Source of the DNA: Scenedesmus sp. PABB004 | Taxonomy: Eukaryota | Direction: 5' to 3' | Length of the DNA stretch: 64,000 bases | NCBI GenBank assembly: GCA_014905635.1 | Contig: JABVCE010000002.1 | Coordinates: 1,860,001 to 1,924,000, forward strand | Part shown: in pieces, positions 3,396 through 40,931 of the stretch | Layout of the letters: every line of letters starts with the position of its first letter | Numbering within the stretch: position 1 is the stretch's first letter | Position numbers and translations under genes: made by a program | Notes under the pieces: generated by a model | What the model was told of the DNA's origin: nothing | The model's input: the letters and a program-made list of their open reading frames with translations, nothing else | The model's database searches: none

Positions 3396-4280
3396 CGCGG
3401 AGGGCGCCGGCGGCGGCGAGGCACAGGGCGCCGCCCGCCCCGCGCGCGCCCGGCCGTCTGCGGCGCCCGGCGGCGCGCGCCGCAGCTAGCAGCACCGGCG
3501 GCTGCGACGAGCTCGTGCGGCTGCGGCGCCGGACAGGCGGCGGATGAGGGGCGGTGCTCGTGGCGCGCCCGCCCGCCACGTGGCGGGCTGTGGTGCGCGG
3601 CCGCCGCCTGCGCCCGCCCGGGCGTGGTGTCAGACGGGAAGCGTGGCATGCTTCCGGTTTTCCCCGGCCACCGGCAGCAGCTCTGGCAGCGCGTGCGCAG
3701 GGCGGCGGCCAGTCGACGGCGGCGACCATCGGCTTTGCCAGCCCCGCCGCCTGCCAGCGCGCGCGCGCGCAGAGCCGTCTGCATGGGCGCCCCGCGGCGC
3801 CGCGCGGTGCGGCGGAGCTGCCGCGGCGGCGCGGGTGCGTGCGGCTGCCGCCAGGGCCAAGCCCGGCCTAGTGTCCAACAGGCAGTGTGACACGGCCCCC
3901 GCAGCTCCCACCCAGCGGCGCCAGCTCTGGCAGCGCACACGGAGCGCGGCGGCAGTCGGCGGCCAGTGCGGCCGCCGGCGAGCCAGCGAGCCGCACCGCG
4001 CCGCGCTCGGCGCGCGGCGCGCGCGCTCCAGCTCGCAGGCTGTCCAGCGGCCGGACAGCACAGCGCTGGCGGCCCCAGAGGGCGCCGCGGCCGGCGGCGC
4101 GCGCGCGGAGAGCAGCGGCAGGCAAGCGGGCGGTGCGGTTGAGAACCGCTAGCGGTTCCAACCGCCGCCTGCCCGCCCGGGCAATATAGCCGCGCGCCCC
4201 ACGGCGGAGCTCACGCACGTCGCAGACTCAAGCTGCACGCGCCCCCAACGCTGCCCGACCAGCCACCCGCCTCCACTACA

Positions 4281-13066: not shown

Positions 13067-14320
13067 ATGGACGGCAAGCGACCGCGCGCTGCGTCACTGA
13101 CAACGCGAACGGCAGCGATGGAGGGCGCGCCAGGGGCGCCCGGCGAAGGTGCGGGCAGTGATGTGCGGGGCAGCACGGTGGCCGCACACCGCGCCCCGCG
13201 GGCCTGTGCGGGCGTGCCGACGGATGTGTGACATGTCGGCCTGCCGCCCACACGCAGGCGGCGCGGCGGCGCCGGCGCCAGCAGCGGCGGCGCCGGCGGC
13301 AGCAGCGGCGCGTGCGCCCGCCGCCGGCGAGGCCGAGGCGCCCGCGCCGAGCGTCGGCGAGGTGCTGCAGGACGCCAACCTGCTCAAGGCCATCTTCGCG
13401 GCCCTGGACATCTCCGACCTGTGCGCGGCGGCGTGCACGTGCAGGCTCTTCAACCAGGTGCGCTCGCCACCCCAAGCTCGCCGCCACCAGACCTGCCCCC
13501 GCGCGCAGCCAGCGCAGCAGCTCACGGTGCACCGCTCGGCACCAGGTCGGCAACTCGGACGACTTTTGGCGCCACATCAGCTTCAAGGACCGCACCGTGC
13601 GCGGCGCCCAGGTGCGGCCGCGTGATGCGCCGGCGCTGCCGCCGCGCCCGCCGCAGCTGCGCGCTGCGCCCCACGCGCGCCGCCGTCGCCGCGCGCGCGC
13701 AGCTGGTGGCGCTGCTGTCGCGGCACCGCTGCGTGGAGAGCCTGGACCTGTCGGGCGTGACGTGCGGCCTGGGCGACGCGGGCCTCTTCTGGCGGCTGCG
13801 CCCCAGCCTCGCCCGCCTGGCCACGCTCTCGTTCCGGCACGGCCCCGGCTGCGAGGCCGCGGTCACGGACGGCGTGCTGCTGCAGCTCCCGAGCGTGCTG
13901 CCGGGCCTGCGCAGCCTCTCGCTGCACCGCGTGCGCCTCGCCGGCGGCGGCGCGGGCGGCGGCGCGCCGCTCACGCACACGGGCCTGACCGCGCTGTCGC
14001 TGACCGAGTGCGACGTGCAGGCGCTGCAGCTGCGCTGCGAGGCGCTCGTGGCGCTCACGCTCTCGGGCAGCCAGCTCCAGCGCCTGCCGCCGCTGTCAGA
14101 CTGCACCGCGCTCGCGCGCCTCGACGCGCGCGGGTGCAAGAAGCTGCAGGACGGCAGCATCCGCGCCGCGCTGCCCATGCTCACGGGGCTGGAGGAGCTC
14201 ACGCTCGGGCAGGGCGTGCCGGTCTCGGACGACACCGTGCGCGAGGTGCGCGCCGCGCCGCGACGGCTGGCGCGGCGAAAGGCATTTTCTGTCGCGCGTC
14301 GCGCGGGCCCTGACGCCGCC

Positions 14321-14351
<31 letters not shown>

Positions 14352-15521
14352 AGCTGGCGACGACGCTGACGCGGCTGACCTCGCTCACGCTCTCCGACAC
14401 GCCCGGGCTGTCGCTGGCGGGCGTGCGAGACTTTCCCGCGCTGCGCGCGCTCGACCTGTGCCGCTGCGAGAGCTTGACGCCCGCGACGCTGCAGCCGGCG
14501 GTCGAGAGCTGCCGCGCGCTGCGCACGCTGCTGCTGGACGGCTGCCACATGGTCACTTCGCTCAAGCTGCACTGCCCGCAGCTCGAGGTGCGGCTGGCGG
14601 GGCGCCCAGTTGCGCGGCTCGTGGCCGAAGCCTCTCGGCGCCGGCGGCGCCGCGCGTCACCCTGCCCGCCGCCGCCGCCGCCGCCGCCGCCGGCAGGAGC
14701 TCTCGCTGCGCGGCTGCGCCGCGCTGTCCGAGCTCGACGTCCACGCCTGGCGCCTCGCGCGCCTGGGCCTCGGGCCCGTGTCTCGCGGCGCGCCAGGCAA
14801 CGGCGCGCTGGCGCGGCTTAAGCTCTATTCAGGCGCGCTGCGGCGCCTGGAGTGGGTGCAGTGCAGCAAGCTGGCGGCGCTGGAGCTCGACCTGCCGCAC
14901 CTGTCGGAGCTGGTCGTCCGCGACTGCGACGCCATCTCGCCCGCGGCGCTCGAGGCGCTCGGCGACAAGGGCCCCGCGCCGGCGCCCGCGCCGGCGCTCG
15001 CGGCCGCCGCGGTGCGCGGGCCGAGCGGCGGCGGCGGCGGCGGCGGCGGCCGCCGCCCCGGCAGCGGCAAGCTGCGGCCCTGCGGCAGCGGCGGCGGTGG
15101 CGCGACGTGGCAGGGCGAGGCTGACGTGGACATGGGCAGCCCCCGCTTTGCCGGCCTGAGTGGGGACGAGGGTGAGGAGATGCCGCAGGCCGCGGAGCAG
15201 GACCCCAGCAGCAGCGACAACGACGGCGACGAGGGCGACGGCGGCGGGCGCGGCGGCGCGCAGCTGCGGCGCCGGTGGGGCCCTGCCGCAGCGGCCGCGG
15301 CGGCGGGCACACCCGGCAGCGGCGGCGGCGGCCTTGCGGGCTGGGCCGCGCCTGGCGCATGGCCGGGGGGGCCGCGGCGGCGAGCGGGGCCGCACGGCGC
15401 CGACGACGCGGGCGCGCACGTCGCTGGCGGCGGCGGCGGCCCTACGGCCGCCGCGGCGCCGCAGCAGCCGGCGGCGCGGAGCAGCCGGGCCCCGGCTCGC
15501 CGGCTCGCGCAGCCGTCAGGC

Positions 15522-15568
<47 letters not shown>

Positions 15569-17807
15569 GCAGCAGGCGCAGGGGCTGGACCACGCCGACC
15601 TGCTCCGCGTGTTTGGGCAGCAGGAGGAGGATGAGCCCGACGCGGGCTGGGCGGACGCCGCCGCGGCGCTCGACTCTGCGCTGCTCGACCTGAGCGATGC
15701 GGATGACGGCGATGACGAGTCCCCCGAGGTCGCGCCGCAGCAGCTGTTCCAGGGCCGGCCGCGCGGCGCGGGGCAGCCGGCGAGCGGCAGCGGGCTGCTC
15801 GGCCGGTTCTGGCGCCGCGGCAGTGACGGCGCTGGCAGCTCCAGTGCGGCCACGGCCGCGGGCGCGCACGTGGCGGGGCTGCAGCAGGCGGCGCCGCCGG
15901 TGCAGCAGGCGGCCGCGGCGGAGACTGCGGCGCAGCCGTCGCGGTTCAGGGCCCTCAGAGGAAGAGCGCGGCTTGCCACGATGCGGTCTGCCCGCCGTGG
16001 CGGCGGCGGCTCTGGCGGCGGCGACGGGAGCGGCGACGGCGGCGGCAGCGACGGCGGGGCGGCGGCGGCGGCGGCAGCGGCGGCGGCGCCGGGGGCGGTG
16101 GAGGCAGCGGCGGCGGCTCAGCTGGAAGCGGCGGCGGTGGCGGCGGAGTGCCCGCGCTTCGCTTTCTGCGCGTGGAGGGCTGCGACGGCCTTCAGCGGCT
16201 GAGCCTGCGGCACAGCGGCCTGGAGGCGCTGTCCGTGAGCGGCTGCGGCAGCCTGGCACAGCTGGTGCTGCACGCGCCGTCGCTGGGGCGGCTGGAGCTG
16301 GAGGAGGTCGGGGAGCTCGCCGCGGTCAGCCTGCAGCAGGTGCGGGGCCGGCTGGGGAGGGGCGCGGGCGGCGCACGCGCGCGCTTGTTGCGCGGCGCGC
16401 CGCCGCCACGCCCGCCCGACCTGCCGTGCCCGCGCGCACGCCTCGCGCCGCCAGGTCGGCCTGCCGCGCCTCTCGCTCGGCGGCTGCAGCGGGCTGGCCG
16501 GCCTGGAGCTGAGCAGCCCCGTGCTTGCGCGCCTCGACCTGCGCGGCTGCGGGGCGCTGCAGCAGCTGCTGCTCGACTGCCCCGCGCTCGCGCTGCTCGA
16601 CGCGACCTTTTGCCGCGGCCTCGGCGACGCGGGCCTCGCCGGCGCGGTCGCGGCCGCGCCGCCGCTCACGGCGCTCGTGCTGTCGGTGTGCTGTTGCGTC
16701 GGCGACGCCGGCCTGTCGGCGCTGTCGTGCCTCGCCGCGCTGCGCGAGCTCGACCTCTCATACACCGAGGTCACCCGGCTCGACGCCGTCTACGCGTCCT
16801 GCCCCCAGCTGCAGCGCCTCAGCCTCGCGAGCTGCCGCGGCCTCGCGCGCGGCGCGCTCGCGCCGCTGCTCGCGCCCGCCGACCCCGCGCTGCCGCGCCT
16901 GCGCTCGCTGGACGCGAGCTACGTCAGCCTGGACGAGGCGACCGCCGCGGCGCTCGCGGCGCGCTGCGGCCGGCTCACGCACCTCGCGCTCAACGGCTGC
17001 GCCGGCGTGACGTGCGCGCTGTGGCGCGCGCTCGAGGCGGACGGGCTGGCGGCGCTCGCCGCCGCCGGCGGCCGCGGCGCGGGCGCGCCCGCCGGCGCCG
17101 ACCCCGACGCCGGTGCCGGCGCGCCGGGCGACGGCCGGCTCGAGTCGCTGAGCCTCGTGCGCTGCGGCCGGCTGCGCTCGCTGTGCCTGGGCCTGCTGCC
17201 GGCGAGCGGCGAGGTGGAGGTGCTGCAGGCCAAGCACTACCTGCTCCGGGGCGACCGCGCCGCGCTGCACGCGCGCGCGGGCGGCTACGCGTGGACGCCT
17301 TCGGCGCACAGCGGCGCGGCGGGGCTCACCAGCCTGCGCGTCGGGCTGTCGGGCGTGCAGGCGGTCGCGCTGGCGCTGCCGCGGCTCGTGTCGTTCGACG
17401 CGAGCGCGTGCGGGCACCTGCGCGTGCTCGAGCTGCGCTGCCCGCTGCTGCTCACGCTGCACCTGCAGGCCTGCCGCGCGCTGCCGCTCTGCGGCCTGCT
17501 GCAGGCGGCGGCGAGCTGCGCGCGGCTGCAGAAGCTGGACGTGCAGCACGTGCTGCCCGGCGGCGGCGGCGGCGGCGGCGCGGCCAGCGCGCGCAGCGCC
17601 GAGGGCGGCAGCGGCAGCGGCGGCGACGAGGAGCCGCCGCGCGGCCTCGCCGCGGCACTCCGCGCGTGGCCGGGCGCGGCGTGGGGTGGCGGCGCCGGCG
17701 CGGCGGCGCTGCACGGCCTGCTGGACGAGCTCTGCGCGGCGCGGCCGGCGCTGCAGGTGCTGCGCTGCCCCGTCGGCTGCGCCGCGTGCTCGCGCGCCGC
17801 GCTCTGA
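13067..17807 (+). CDS. F-box/leucine-rich-repeat protein (FBL15-like architecture)
   Basis: F-box-like LQDANLLKAIFAALDISDLCAAACTCRLFNQV...FW, then many Cys-containing LRRs (LxxLDLxxCxxL); long low-complexity insert ~14960-16140; 1-nt frameshift near 16152. Confidence 0.82.
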
Positions 17808-20989: not shown

Positions 20990-21730
20990 ATGAAGGAAGG
21001 AGGGCTGGAGGGAGGGCTGGAGAGAGGCCGGAGAGGGGCTGAAGATTGGCCCTGCGCCGGCCGCGCGGCGCGGCGGGCCCGCCGGCTCGAGCCCGGCCCG
21101 GAGGCAGCCGGCAGCGCCCGCCCGAGCGCGCGGCGGGGCTGGTGCAGCTCTCCCTCTCTCCTCTCTCTCTGGGCGCGCGGGCGGCCAGCGCGGGCGGCTC
21201 CCGAGCGGCGCGCGCGCGGCGACGCGGCCCCAAGCTGCAAGGGCGGCAATGCGCGATCTGACCACGCGAGTGGGGGCGGGGGCCTCACATGGTGCGAGCA
21301 TGCCTGCACTTCGTTAAACCCTTGAAACGGTCGCTGGCTCGCCGCGCGGTGCGTCGCGTGACGTGCGCTGAACCGCGCTGAACCGCGCTGAACCGCCCGC
21401 GCTTCAGCTCGGCCGGCGCGGCAGGGCACCCTCACACAGCACCCCCTCGCGCAGGCAGCCCCGTGCCCGCCCTCGCGCAGCGCACCGATCGGCCCGCCGC
21501 CGCCGAAGCTGCCGCCGCCGGCGCGCCGCTGCGCAAGCCAGTCCAAGGGCGTGCGCATGCTGGCCCTCCGTGGCCTCTGCCCTCCGTGGCCTCGCCCGCC
21601 GAGCAGGCCGCGCAGCAGCAGCGCGCGCGCAGCTGCATCCGAGGGCGGCGCCTCGCGCCGCCGCCCGCCGCGCCGCGCGACCCCGCCGCAGCCGCCAGCC
21701 GTGTTCAGCGACCCGCCCGTGGCACAAGCA

Positions 21731-24366
21731 ATGGCCAGCGCCGCCGCCGGCGGCGCCGCCTTGCGCAGCGGCGGCGGCGGCGCGCCGAGCGGCGGCGGCG
21801 CGCCAGCTGGCGGCGCCGGCCGGCGGCCGCTGGTCGACCACGCGCTGGGGCTGCTGCAGCAGCGCCTGCGCGACGACGCGACGCGGTCCGGCCGCGAGCC
21901 GGCGCCCGGCGAGGTGGAGGCCGAGGCGGCGGAGCTGCTCACGGCCGAGCACCTGTCGCAGCTGCAGGACGTGTGGGCATGGCTACACGAGAAGCTCTAC
22001 GGCCTGCGGGTGCGCACGCGCGCGAGCGCGGCAAACGGACCAGCCCGCGCCCACTATCAGCGCACAGCGTGCGCCGTTGAGGCCCTGCCGCTGCCGCTCG
22101 CGCAGATCCTTGCCAGCCTCGGCGCCAGCCACAACGAGTCTGAGGTTCTCTTCCTCGACCCACGCACGCCCGCCGAGGCGACGCTGAGCGCCGGGGACGC
22201 TCCCGCGGTCTCGGTCGCGCAGCACGTCGCGGCGACGCACGGCTGGGCCCCGCGCAGCCGGCGCTGCCGTGCGTGGGCGTGCCGCTCAGCGCGAAGCGGC
22301 GTGCTGAGCTGGGGCCGGACGCGGAGGAGCGCTCCTATCTGACGTACCCGATGGAGGCCTGCAGGCGCGGCGCCGCGCGCTGCCACCGCTGCACGCGTGG
22401 CGCACGCGCGGTGCGCGTGGGTGTGGCGCATCGCCACACAGCCCCGCCCCGCCCCACTCCACACCCCACGCGCCGCAGCGTGCGGCTCAGCGCCGGCGGC
22501 GTGCCGCAGGAGCGCACGCCGGGCGGCAGCGTGCCGCTGAGGCTGCCGCCGAAGCGCATCGCCGCCATTGGCCGCGACGTGGAGGTGCCGGCGGCCATCG
22601 CGGACCTGCTCAACAGCCGCTTTGAGCGCGAGCACGCCAAGGCCAAGGCCGAGCCCGTGCAGGGCGCCGCCACGGCGCCAGGCCCGGCCGCCGCTGGCGG
22701 CGGCGCGCGGCCCAGCTCCAGCGCCAGCGCCAGCGCGCCGGCGTCGCCGCGCGCGCTGCCCGGCCGCGGCGCGGTCAACCAGGGGCTGCGCCAGCTGGCC
22801 GCGCGGCTGTACCTCGCCGACGGCGAGGAGAGGCGGATGAAGGCGGTGGTGGAGGCCGTGGCCAAGGCGTGCCACGCCGTGCCGCCCCGGCGGGAGTGGC
22901 GCGTCGCCCGCGTCGTGCCGGCGGGCTCGCTCGTCAAGAGCACCGCGCTGCGCGGCGCGTGCGTACGCAGCGCGCGCGCGCGCGCGCGCACACAGCTTAG
23001 CGGATGCCTGCTCGCGGCGCGCGCGGCCTGCGCCGGGCGCGCCGTGTGAGCGCGCGCCGCCGCGCCGGCTCGGCCGCAGGTGTGACCTGGACGTCGTGGT
23101 ATTCCTCAACGTCTACGACCCCACCACGCGGCCCTTTGACGTCTGCCGCCAGGACCTGCTGGAAGCGCTGCACGCGCAGCTGACCGCGCCCGCCGCCAGC
23201 CAGGCGCCCGGCAGCGCGTCCGACCCCGCGCGCGGCTGGGAGCTGCGGAGCTGCCACAGCCACTTCTTCCTGCGCCTCGAGCACCCGGTGCTGCGGCTGC
23301 AGCTGGACGTGCAGGCGCGGCGCGTGGGCCGGGCCGCCCAGCGGCCAGCTGCGGTCGCGGGCTGACGCAGCCGCCGGCTGGCAGCTCACGGCCTCGCCGC
23401 GCGCGCGCCGGCGCCGGCGCTGCCGCCGCCGCAGGTGGCGGAGAGGTTTGGCGACGACAAGCACGCGCAGCGCGAGGCCCTGCTGGGCCCGCTGCTGGCC
23501 GCCGCGGACGCGCCGGACGCGCTGCCGGCAACCATCAGCCCGCAGCGCCAACGCGTCACTGACCTCAGCGAGCTGGTGCGATGTCCGCGAGCTCCGCGGC
23601 CGCCCGCGCCGCCGACGCCGCCCGGCGCACGCGCGACGCGCGGCCCTGCCCCGCCCCGCGCTCCGTGCAGATGGTCGAGGTTGTGACGGGCGTCGAGGCC
23701 CGCCAGCGCGCGCGCTGCGCCGCCGCGGGCGTGCCGTACGAGCAGGGCCTCGGCCGGCTGGTCACGGACGTGGTGCGCATCATCAAGGCCTGGGCCAAGC
23801 ACGGCCTCCCCGCCGCGCCAGGTGCCATCGCCGCGGCCGCGGCGCCCCCGGCGTACGTGCTGGAGATCCTCGTCGTGCACGCGCTCGAGCGCCGCCTGGC
23901 GCCTGGCGCGCCGGCGGAGCAGCCCGCGCCTGGCGCGCCGGCGGCGAGCGCCGCGCCCGCCGGCAGCCGGCCGTTCAGGCAGGAGGAGCCGCTGACACTG
24001 CTGCTCGCTGTGCTGGACGACCTCGCCGGCCTTGCGCCGGGCGCGCTGGGCGGCGAGGGCGGCGGCGGCGAGCCGCTATGGCGCATCATACTGCCGATCT
24101 TCTACACGCGCGAGCAGGCGCTCGCGTTTGCGCAGGTCTGGGGCAAGGGGCCGCTGTACGAGCCGGCGCTCGTCAACCCTGTCGACCCGACCTACAACTG
24201 CATTTCGTTCACGCCCTGGCGCGACGTGGCGGGGCTCGCGCGCGCGGCGGGCGCGCTGCGGCGCGCGCTGCTCGACGCGGCGGCGGGCGGCCAGGCAGGG
24301 GCGTGGGAGCGCGTGCTCGCGGCCAGCACGCTCGGGCCGGCGTGGGAGGCATTCGCGCCGCGCTGA
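21731..24366 (+). CDS. OAS-like (2'-5'-oligoadenylate synthetase family) nucleotidyltransferase with putative N-terminal PAZ domain
   Basis: Exons 21731-22009, 22106-22364, 22479-22958, 23080-23314, 23435-23575, 23671-24366. Spliced VVPAGSLVKSTALRGACDLDVVVFLN, LQLDVQVA, VVRIIKAWAK, PPAYVLEILVVHALE and PALVNPVDPTYN match OAS motifs. N-terminal LYGLRI...TPAEATL...SVAQHV...QPALPCVGV...YLTYPMEACSV resembles PAZ. One extra base is needed in the C-run at 22248-22251. Confidence 0.85.
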
Positions 24367-24451: not shown

Positions 24452-25794
24452 TCAGCCGCCGCCGCGCAGCCGCGCGAGCACGCGCAGGCCGGCGCCCGCG
24501 TCTGTGCTGAACAGCGGCACCGCCGCGATGGCCAGCACCAGCACCACCATTGCCGCCGTCAGCAGCCCGCTCGCGCCGGCGCCGCCGCCGCCCGCTCGCG
24601 CCGCGCCGGCGCCGGCGGCCCCCTGCTGCTGCTGCGGCGGCGGCGGCTGCAGCCCCTGCTGCGCCGCGCCGCCCGGCTGCGCCGCCGCCGCGGCCGGCCG
24701 CTCGCGCGCCTGCTGCTCCGCGCCGCCGCCCGGCTGCGCAGCGGCCGCGGCGGCGGCGGCCGCGCGCGCCGCGTGCGCGGCGAGCAGGTCTGGGAAGAGC
24801 TTTCTGAAGGTCGCGTTGCGCGCGTTGAAGGCCAGCGACTCGGCCGCGAGGCGCCGCCGCTCGGCGGGCGACGAGGTGATGCTGCCCGTCGTGGGCGCGC
24901 TGTCATACAGGAAGGACAGCAGGCCGGTCAGGATCTGCGCGCGCGCGTGGGCCGTGCGGGCCGTGTGGGCGAGCGCGGGTGAGCGCGGGCAGAGGGCAAC
25001 GGCGCGCCACACGGCGGCGCGCGCGTGCACAGAGACGGGCGGGCGGCGGGCGCCGCACCGTGCCGACGCTCCACATGGGGTTCCAGGACTCTGGGTGATA
25101 GTCTGCGGGGCGCGGCGGTGCGCAGACGCCGCGCTCGGCGCCGAGCGCAGCGCCTGCGTGGCCCCGGCGCTCGCGCGGGGCCGGGGGCGGCGCGGCAGCG
25201 GCGGTCACCCGTGATGGAGAGGCAGAGCTTGGTGTTGACCGCGAAGCGGCCGTTTGGCGTCATGATGGCGATGCTCGGCGGCTTGAACGGGTACTGGTGG
25301 GCGGCAGCGGGCGGGGAGGGAGCGGGAGGGAGTGGGGTGGTGGGAGAGACAGGGGTGGTGCGACGGCGGCGCGGGTGCGTGCTGCGGAGCGGGGCGGCGC
25401 CGCGCGTCGCGCGCTGCACCTGCGGCGGGAAGGAGATGCGGCCGTGGTAGTAGCCGCCCTCAAAGTCGGTGCCGGGCGCGCCCTCGAGCACAAAGTGCCT
25501 GCGCGGCGCGGGAGGGCCGGGCGCGCGTGGGGCGGCGCGGCGGCCGCGGGAGAAAGAGCGAGAGCGCGTGGGGCGGCGCGGCGCGCACCACTCCAGCATG
25601 TTGCTGGGCGACGGGTGCGCCTGGATGTGCGGCACGGGCTCCTGCGGGCGGGCCACGCGGCAGCAGCGGCGGTGACTGAGGCGCCGCAGCGGCGAAGGCT
25701 GCGGCGCGCTGAAGGCTGCGCATGCGCGACCGCACACCCGCATGAGCGACTTGTACTCCTTGGCCAGGCGCGTGAGGCAGCCCTTTTGCGCCAT
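24452..25794 (-). CDS. UBC6: Tail-anchored ubiquitin-conjugating enzyme E2 of the Ubc6/UBE2J2 type
   Basis: MAQKGCLTRLAKEYK, GGYYHGRISFPPQYPFKPPSI, TPNGRF, KLCLSITDYHPESWNPMWSVGTILTGLLSF and a C-terminal TM helix. Confidence 0.93.
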
Positions 25795-26258
25795 GGCGTG
25801 GTGGCGCGGCCGAGGCGCGCCGTCGAGCAGCGGCAGATGCGGCGACCGGCGCGTGCTGCTGCCGCGCCTCGAGCGCGGCTTGCTGAGGCCCGGTGTTGCT
25901 CGGGGTGCAGGGCCGGCGCAGCGGGGCCGGGGCGGCGCGGCGGCGAGCTACGGCAGCGGGCGAGCTGCGGCGGCGCCGCTTGCGCAGCAGCGTCGGCGAG
26001 CGCAGCGTCGTCGTCGCGGGAGCCCGCTGGCGCTGCGGGCGGACGGCAGGTGCGTGTTGTGGTCGGTGGGCGCAAGGGAGGACGGCACACAGGCGGTGGC
26101 CGGGCGCGAGGGCCCTGCAAAGACCGCGACCTGCTGCCCGCTCGCCCTGCTCGGCGCGCACAGCGCATCCGCGCTCAGAGCAGGGCCTAACGCACACAGC
26201 ACGAGCCGCGTCCCAGGCCGGCGGCGCGCTCGGCGGCGGCAGCAGCGCGCACCGCGAG

Positions 26259-40858: not shown

Positions 40859-40930
40859 GGCTCGCTAGCACAATGGTAGTGCGTCTGACTCCAGATCAGA
40901 AGGTTGTAGGTTCGACTCCTGCGCGGGTCA
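40859..40930 (+). tRNA. trnW-CCA: tRNA-Trp (anticodon CCA), intronless
   Basis: Acceptor stem GGCTCGC/GCGGGTC, D arm GCAC-AATGGTA-GTGC, anticodon arm TCTGA-CTCCAGA-TCAGA (CCA at 40891-40893), T arm GTAGG-TTCGACT-CCTGC. Confidence 0.96.
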
Positions 40931-40931
40931 C

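Follow-up and report, generated by a model that had tools for sequence, protein, structure and literature searches.

A 64,000-nucleotide stretch of contig JABVCE010000002.1 from the green alga Scenedesmus sp. PABB004 (hereafter the window, with positions counted from its first letter) contains a gene at 21731–24366 on the forward strand. The gene is predicted to encode an enzyme of the oligoadenylate synthetase (OAS) family, which carries a conserved domain of about 115 residues at its front. The positions read as a single six-exon gene, and the model built from the coordinates, with an X at one break, is stop-free over 696 codons from the start ATG (21731–21733) to the stop TGA (24364–24366). 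The G+C content of the window (1–64000) is 72–85% per 2-kb bin, with a mean of about 79%, an extreme value among eukaryotic nuclear segments. Long stretches are open in all six frames, and therefore open reading frames (ORFs) alone mean little in the window. The G+C content by codon position places the coding frame in register 2 at approximately 21740–22250, register 1 at 22280–22960, register 2 at 23000–23560, and register 1 at 23600–24366. Within 21740–24366, the third position that is rich in G+C switches register near 22250, 22980, and 23580 and once more back, four times in all. These switches fit six exons and agree with the exon pattern given in an earlier note on this DNA, which had been prepared from the nucleotide letters of the window. 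The strings quoted in that note were all recovered in the frame translations.

The splice sites were deduced from frame and homology. The homologues used were the proteins P0003 from Tetradesmus obliquus, P0043 from Scenedesmus sp., P0037, which is the EukProt record of Hariotina reticulata, the intact algal relative P0044, the relatives P0001, P0002, and P0004, and the lizard OAS2-like protein P0042. The features of the gene, all on the forward strand, are as follows.

21731–22009, +, exon 1: ATG at 21731, register-2 periodicity, and a BLASTP match to P0003 residues 2–32; an Ala/Gly-rich start of about 67 residues without a counterpart in P0003 is followed by a helix ending in WAWLHEKLYGLR, the first block of the conserved N-terminal domain
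22010–22105, +, intron 1: 96 nucleotides, GTGCGC...CAG
22106–22364, +, exon 2: core of the conserved N-terminal (PAZ-like) domain with FLDPRTPA, SVAQH, QPALPCVGV, and YLTYPMEAC; supported by BLASTP to P0003 and P0043 and by conservation tests
22248–22251, +, run of C residues with one base missing from the window: register 2 gives way to register 1, and a contig from run X1 has an extra C
22365–22478, +, intron 2: 114 nucleotides, GC donor, GCGCGG...CAG
22479–22958, +, exon 3: linker including an Ala/Ser/Pro-rich stretch, then the N-terminal helix and G-S loop of the enzyme (RVARVVPAGSLVKSTALRGA); BLASTP to P0043, P0037, P0044, and P0042
22959–23079, +, intron 3: 121 nucleotides, GTGCGT...CAG
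23080–23314, +, exon 4: catalytic D-L-D (CDLDVVVFLN) and third-Asp strand (LRLQLDVQ); gapless match to the units of P0042, 18/36 identical
23315–23434, +, intron 4: 120 nucleotides, GC donor; homologues show DVQVA over the junction
23435–23575, +, exon 5: helical link (VAERFGDDKHAQREALLGPLL...RQRVTDLSEL); alignment with P0001, P0002, P0003, and P0004
23576–23670, +, intron 5: 95 nucleotides, GTGCGA...CAG; the junction SEL/MVEVV resembles TELMTDVV of P0002
23671–24366, +, exon 6: OAS1_C-type C-lobe (RIIKAW, PPAYVLEIL, LVNPVDPTYNC) and the stop codon

The five introns, of 96, 114, 121, 120, and 95 nucleotides, all end in CAG, and three of them have GTGCG-type donors. GC donors are needed at 22365 and 23315, with the junction CAG/GCGCGGCGC at both. 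The GC donor of intron 2 was assigned because no GT donor is in frame with its acceptor. At 23315, an alternative GT six bases upstream, at 23309, is possible and would cost two residues (Val-Gln). Both junctions may be mis-modelled; if they are not, GC-AG introns would be common in this genome. Intron 3 is the sole GT-AG option that links ...RGA with CDLDV in frame, and the spliced product reads ...TALRGACDLDVVVFLN. Splicing out intron 1 gives the same distance from GLR to FLDPR as in P0003; intron 1 may also be retained, since it is in frame and stop-free. Codon periodicity is weak at 22340–22460, and intron 2 may be read through.

The frame switch near 22250 occurs without an intron and sits in the CCCC at 22248–22251. 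A 267-nucleotide contig from a freshwater metagenome (run X1, depth 2) corresponds to window positions 22054–22319 with one gap and no other differences. The contig has an extra C behind 22247, which restores the reading frame and is the one-base repair that the earlier note had proposed at this run. Because the contig is a single record of depth 2, its support for the repair is suggestive but not final. In two DNA runs, only 5–6% of the sampled words were present, and most of the pieces were matches of 35–40 nucleotides to GC-rich DNA of other organisms. The second run contained a relative of exon 6 with 95–98% identity, in which four of the eight listed differences were silent third-position changes. 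The most probable cause of the frame break is an indel in the C-run, from the assembly or the strain, rather than death of the gene.

The enzyme half and the OAS family

The C-terminal half of the predicted protein was attributed to OAS in the earlier note, and this attribution is borne out by the core motif, both Asp positions, the evidence for the OAS1_C family, and the restriction of the profile matches in the Protein Data Bank (PDB) to OAS proteins. In the Pol-beta nucleotidyltransferase (NTase) core, AGSLVKSTALRGACDLDVVVFL aligns gap-free to GGSLGKGTALKGSSDADLVLFL of lizard P0042, with 18/36 residues identical, so that the spliced core RVARVVPAGSLVKSTALRGACDLDVVVFLN, which spans the G-S loop and D-x-D motif, has 50% identity over 36 residues to the OAS2-like units. 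The strand with the third Asp, LRLQLDVQ, aligns with VQLDVDVLLAP of P0044 and has the counterparts LQLDV in P0003 and P0037 and LQMDV in P0043; no direct BLAST alignment of this strand to lizard P0042 was obtained. The close relative P0002 (343 residues, Logan contig) contains HDLVLL and LQVALH in place of the D-L-D and LQLDV of the family, and could be either a paralogue that has lost catalysis or an artefact of gene calling.

An exhaustive phmmer search with the last exon against 1.84 billion representatives retrieved 42 relatives, 25 of them at E ≤ 1e-10, and including the lizard OAS2-like protein at E 3.4e-4. Most of the relatives are fragments of 250–350 residues, prodigal-style calls on metagenome or Logan contigs. 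In addition to the lizard protein, those with names come from three algae of the Scenedesmaceae: Tetradesmus obliquus, Scenedesmus sp. NREL 46B-D3, and Hariotina reticulata. Exon 6 alone matches Pfam OAS1_C (PF10421) with 17.7 bits and E 0.0028, against a cut-off of 19.9. Among 29 relatives scanned against Pfam, OAS1_C was found at E ≤ 0.01 in 12 and no match in 17; eight (seven algal proteins and the lizard protein) scored above the cut-off. The alignment of the family profile to the lizard protein has an hhalign probability of 92.7% and E 4e-7. Searched against PDB sequences, the family profile gave eight matches at E ≤ 1, seven of which are OAS1/2/3/OASL, with OAS2, OAS1, and OASL at E 4e-6 to 2.5e-5, and the other a chance row at E 0.77. 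There was no terminal uridylyltransferase (TUTase) or CCA-adding enzyme among these eight. Clustering with such enzymes, which the earlier note had named as evidence against its assignment, was seen neither in the profile nor in the Pfam results.

The model of the C-lobe (exon 6) has a predicted local distance difference test score (pLDDT) of 86.9 and a predicted template modelling score (pTM) of 0.85. Foldseek returned no match at E ≤ 0.001 for this model, and its top rows were OAS2, CdnC, and OASL. Structure searches with the C-lobe matched CdnC, OAS2, and OAS1, with CdnC the best and tailing enzymes close behind. The assignment is supported in that sequence comparison places the enzyme half in OAS and the predicted structure puts CD-NTase/OAS first. 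Several smaller queries were negative. The last exon had no match among longer proteins in a word-indexed search, the last exon and first ORF had none among PDB sequences at E ≤ 10, and a 59-residue piece with the G-S loop gave chance rows only. A PADLOC scan yielded one chance-level JetB row, located over intron read-through, and NCBIfam yielded nothing. A tree was built from 40 of 43 rows, after three that cover fewer than 150 residues of the region had been left out. In it, P0007 is the partner of the window (support 91/88), and no strongly supported clade joins the window with P0003/P0043.

The algal enzyme shares with animal OAS1/2/3 and OASL (Pfam NTP_transf_2 and OAS1_C) the G-S loop, D-x-D, third Asp, and the C-lobe motifs R..KAW, PP.Y.LE.L, and P.DPT.N. 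It differs from them in that the overall identity is about 23%, compared with 50% over the 36-residue core, and that the algal C-lobe has long low-complexity inserts. Activation by double-stranded RNA and 2'-5' linkage of the product are properties of animal OAS that the algal protein may share. No animal OAS is known to contain the front domain. The bacterial clade C CD-NTase CdnC (PDB 6p80) is 15% identical, and PDB entry titles indicate that HORMA/Trip13 partners, and no fused domain, control it. TUT4/7, Cid1, and Trf4 belong to the same Pol-beta-type fold class, and their entry titles show the attachment of RNA-binding modules to NTases to be an established arrangement; however, they have no sequence-profile match to the algal protein, the C-lobe of which Pfam puts in OAS1_C. 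OAS-like CD-NTases across non-animal eukaryotes have been surveyed by Culbertson and Levin 2023 (PMC10732462), and the algal gene resembles that superfamily as an OAS1_C-bearing CD-NTase in a non-metazoan eukaryote.

The front domain and its relation to PAZ

The front domain is conserved together with its position in the protein. The spliced product aligns to P0003 over 320–693 at E 9e-48 and over the front residues 68–182 at E 3.5e-12. The match to P0043 is one alignment (99–418, E 3e-22), extending from the N-terminal domain across the linker to the enzyme core. The matches of the spliced product were also checked with contiguous ORFs. Judged from these alignments, the N-terminal domain of about 115 residues is real, conserved, and fused in the same order in three organisms. 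The earlier view of a single-gene fusion is supported by the two annotated homologues, P0003 and P0043, which have the same domain order.

Few carriers of the domain were found: a word-indexed search of 5.8 billion clusters yielded only two proteins besides that of the window. With P0003 residues 1–175 as the query, P0043 was the sole match; residues 12–104 retrieved only P0003 itself and missed P0043, which demonstrates that the word-indexed search is insensitive. A profile identified no further carriers among 45 collected proteins, and there is no second copy among the 649 ORFs of the window. Pattern scans of metagenome and viral contigs produced pattern matches but no relative of the domain. 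The searches for carriers are weak, and the relatives are mostly C-terminal fragments, the upstream exons of which are unreadable.

The earlier note had read the front domain as PAZ, the RNA-end-binding domain of Argonaute and Dicer (PF02170). The pattern residues that it pointed out are conserved, whereas a Pfam, PDB, or fold match to PAZ was not obtained. The blocks GLKV, PA, VA.YF, P.LPC..VG, and YLP.E.C occur in this order in the window, P0003, and P0043, which corresponds to the order GLK[VI], PA, S-V-A..Y, P.LPC..V, and YL..P.E.C of Argonaute/Dicer PAZ, and the constrained residues of the algal domain are those that match the PAZ blocks. Because the pattern had been drawn from the window only, the homologues serve as an out-of-sample test. 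In P0003, 16/20 pattern residues of the window are identical, compared with 43/122 aligned positions overall (hypergeometric P 1e-5), and none of 20,000 random sets matched for residue type contained 16 identities to P0003. Within the quoted blocks, the 16/20 pattern residues compare with 4/27 neighbouring residues (Fisher P 9e-6). The same comparisons are weaker for P0043, with 11/17 identical against 38/95 overall (P 0.022) and against 6/25 inside the blocks (P 0.01).

Printed peptides of human AGO2 (317–333, PMC10276003) and AGO1 (336–350, PMC11942892) include YPHLPCLQVG and YLPLEVCNIVAGQRC, and the algal proteins have QPLLPCIGV and YLSYPVEVCWLKRGR. The two peptides were scored in order against 20,000 shuffles, and the observed score was reached by 193 shuffles for P0003, 24 for P0043, and 200 for the window (P approximately 0.001–0.01); as the family was chosen after looking, among thousands, this score is not significant. 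In a by-eye comparison with the nematode Argonaute sequence printed in bioRxiv 10.1101/061101, the order of the blocks is the same and two spacings are identical. The distance from GLK[VI] to PA is 24 residues in all three proteins compared, and in both the window and the nematode protein LPC follows the His/Tyr of the SVA.Y block at a distance of 14 residues. The pattern PA..TF of the earlier note is one residue shorter than the real spacing. Prokaryotic Argonaute PAZ domains were considered as a route to comparison and set aside, as their divergence is too great to inform.

Searches for the domain by profile and fold returned no PAZ. Five N-terminal pieces matched no Pfam family at E ≤ 10, PAZ included, in a search in which the HMMER filters hide matches above E of approximately 0.1–0.25. 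Full-length P0003 matched OAS1_C and, weakly, SMODS only. A PDB profile search with the N-terminal domain gave 11 weak matches, none of them Argonaute or Dicer. The AlphaFold2 model of the domain, calculated from a five-row alignment, has a pLDDT of 40 and is unusable, and Foldseek and VIA searches with it provided nothing usable. Models from the ESM Atlas offered no PAZ lead, with template modelling scores below 0.4. The algal domain thus differs from Argonaute/Dicer PAZ in lacking confirmation by hidden Markov model or structure, and also in its longer loops and its fusion to an NTase instead of MID-PIWI or RNase III. We regard the odds that the front domain is homologous to PAZ as about even.

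Two alternatives concern the nature of this domain. It could be a lineage-specific module that is unrelated to PAZ, does not bind nucleic acid, and serves, for example, regulation or partner docking, the protein then being no more than an OAS-like algal enzyme with an additional domain. This is a possibility that we hold to be doubtful. The failure of profile, atlas, and fold methods to recognize the domain and the presence of only two other carriers in the word-indexed clusters agree with it; however, the conservation tests are hard to square with a chance match to the PAZ pattern, and the negative searches were all of low sensitivity or made on an unfolded model. At the other extreme, the domain could be a true PAZ homologue that grips the 3' ends of small RNAs or of Dicer-type duplexes and thereby gates messenger synthesis. 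The shared block order and spacings, the likeness to the human peptides, and the conservation at pattern residues in P0003 and, less strongly, P0043 speak for such a protein. Against it stand the missing Pfam match in the N-terminal pieces and full-length P0003, the PDB profile search without Argonaute or Dicer, and the shuffle score. In addition, the aromatics of the pocket type are not kept in the window, where, according to the by-eye alignment, His replaces Tyr twice. We consider this strict version unlikely, to about the same degree as the lineage-specific module.

Proposed mechanism

Based on the fusion and the OAS-type core, a mechanism can be proposed. The enzyme half contains the features required of an active OAS-type transferase. 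The front domain is both fused and constrained, which makes it the obvious place for ligand sensing. The C-terminal two thirds of the protein are a nucleotidyltransferase of the OAS family (CD-NTase clade C-like), in which the metal-binding triad is intact, and the first third carries the conserved domain, which would act as the ligand-sensing module. The front domain most likely binds nucleic acid and may derive from PAZ. By holding or presenting RNA, it would switch on the OAS-type domain, which would then make an oligoadenylate-type messenger from ATP. We favour this RNA-activated oligoadenylate-type synthase with an RNA-binding front domain and give it a probability of about 0.5. The narrower idea of the earlier note, in which RNA-end sensing is coupled to synthesis of 2'-5' oligoadenylate (2-5A), is a conjecture.

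Several points weigh against the proposal. We infer that the front domain binds RNA, that RNA activates the enzyme, and that an oligoadenylate-type product is made, and any part in immunity is likewise conjectural. The predicted structure of the transcript, with its two GC-donor introns and its start codon, comes from frame and homology. The window itself is frameshifted, the break-free contig being a single record of depth 2, and the OAS1_C score of the window is under the Pfam cut-off. The gene models P0003, P0043, and P0037 each lack a part of the core, so that the fusion in those species relies on imperfect annotations. The neighbours of the gene are ordinary nuclear or housekeeping genes, with no effector candidate nearby.

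The enzyme half might instead extend an RNA held by the front domain without producing a free messenger. Such RNA tailing is improbable, given that the sequence profiles match OAS proteins and no TUTase, that Pfam assigns OAS1_C and not PAP-associated domains, and that the structure most closely matches CdnC, a synthase of cyclic oligonucleotides. It is more improbable still that the locus is a pseudogene with a real frameshift and a protein ending at 22340–22342: the assembled window is one base short and the register-2 frame closes at 22342, but codon-position GC periodicity is strong in the shifted frame across all later exons, the spliced model has no further breaks, the otherwise identical contig has the extra C, and the related strain has four of its eight listed differences at silent third positions.

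OAS-like proteins outside animals have already been published (PMC10732462), and the PAZ claim is the sole new part of the earlier interpretation. The main text of that survey does not contain the word PAZ, treats fusions for STING only, and names no ligand or partner for the non-animal enzymes; its supplementary domain tables might list extra domains. In the literature that we found on NTase fusions and algal OAS, a PAZ or other front domain on OAS-like CD-NTases is undescribed, in agreement with the earlier note. A conserved fused front domain is a natural sensor candidate and a defined construct. If the domain is PAZ, a synthase of the OAS family would have acquired it in green algae of scenedesmacean type, which would wire the RNA-end recognition of RNA interference (RNAi) to nucleotide signalling and provide a physical link between RNAi and nucleotide-messenger immunity. 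The 3' ends of small RNAs or Dicer products could then directly trigger an oligoadenylate or cyclic-oligonucleotide messenger, and the protein would be a rare context for PAZ beyond Argonaute and Dicer. Even if it proves unrelated to PAZ, the domain has no published description and sits on an immune-type enzyme of common, culturable freshwater algae.

Genomic surroundings

The upstream neighbour of the OAS-like gene is an Na_Ca_ex-type exchanger. Further upstream are ELP1, a radical-SAM CDKAL1-like gene, a CLC channel, and leucine-rich repeat (LRR) proteins, and downstream are Mpp10, a hydrolase, an M43 peptidase, PP2C, TauE, and a BK channel. The following features were also recorded.

3933–4026, tRNA-His: 94 nucleotides, called by ARAGORN and unreported by Rfam
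13232–17804, +, LRR ORF pieces (LRR_4, LRR_8, F-box-associated LRR), about 4 kb upstream
24452–25950, −, convergent gene, the end of which is about 86 nucleotides from the stop of the OAS-like gene
40859–40931, tRNA-Trp: Rfam score of 64.7 bits; its bin, with 72% G+C, is the only lower-GC one in the window

Because the convergent gene ends at so short a distance, the 3' untranslated regions of the two genes would overlap. By eye, its pieces have the look of a tail-anchored UBC6-type E2 (YPFKPPS... and a hydrophobic C-terminus), with no Pfam match at E ≤ 0.001. Three tandem copies of GAACCGCGCT are located at 21362–21396, about 340 nucleotides upstream of the start codon of the OAS-like gene.

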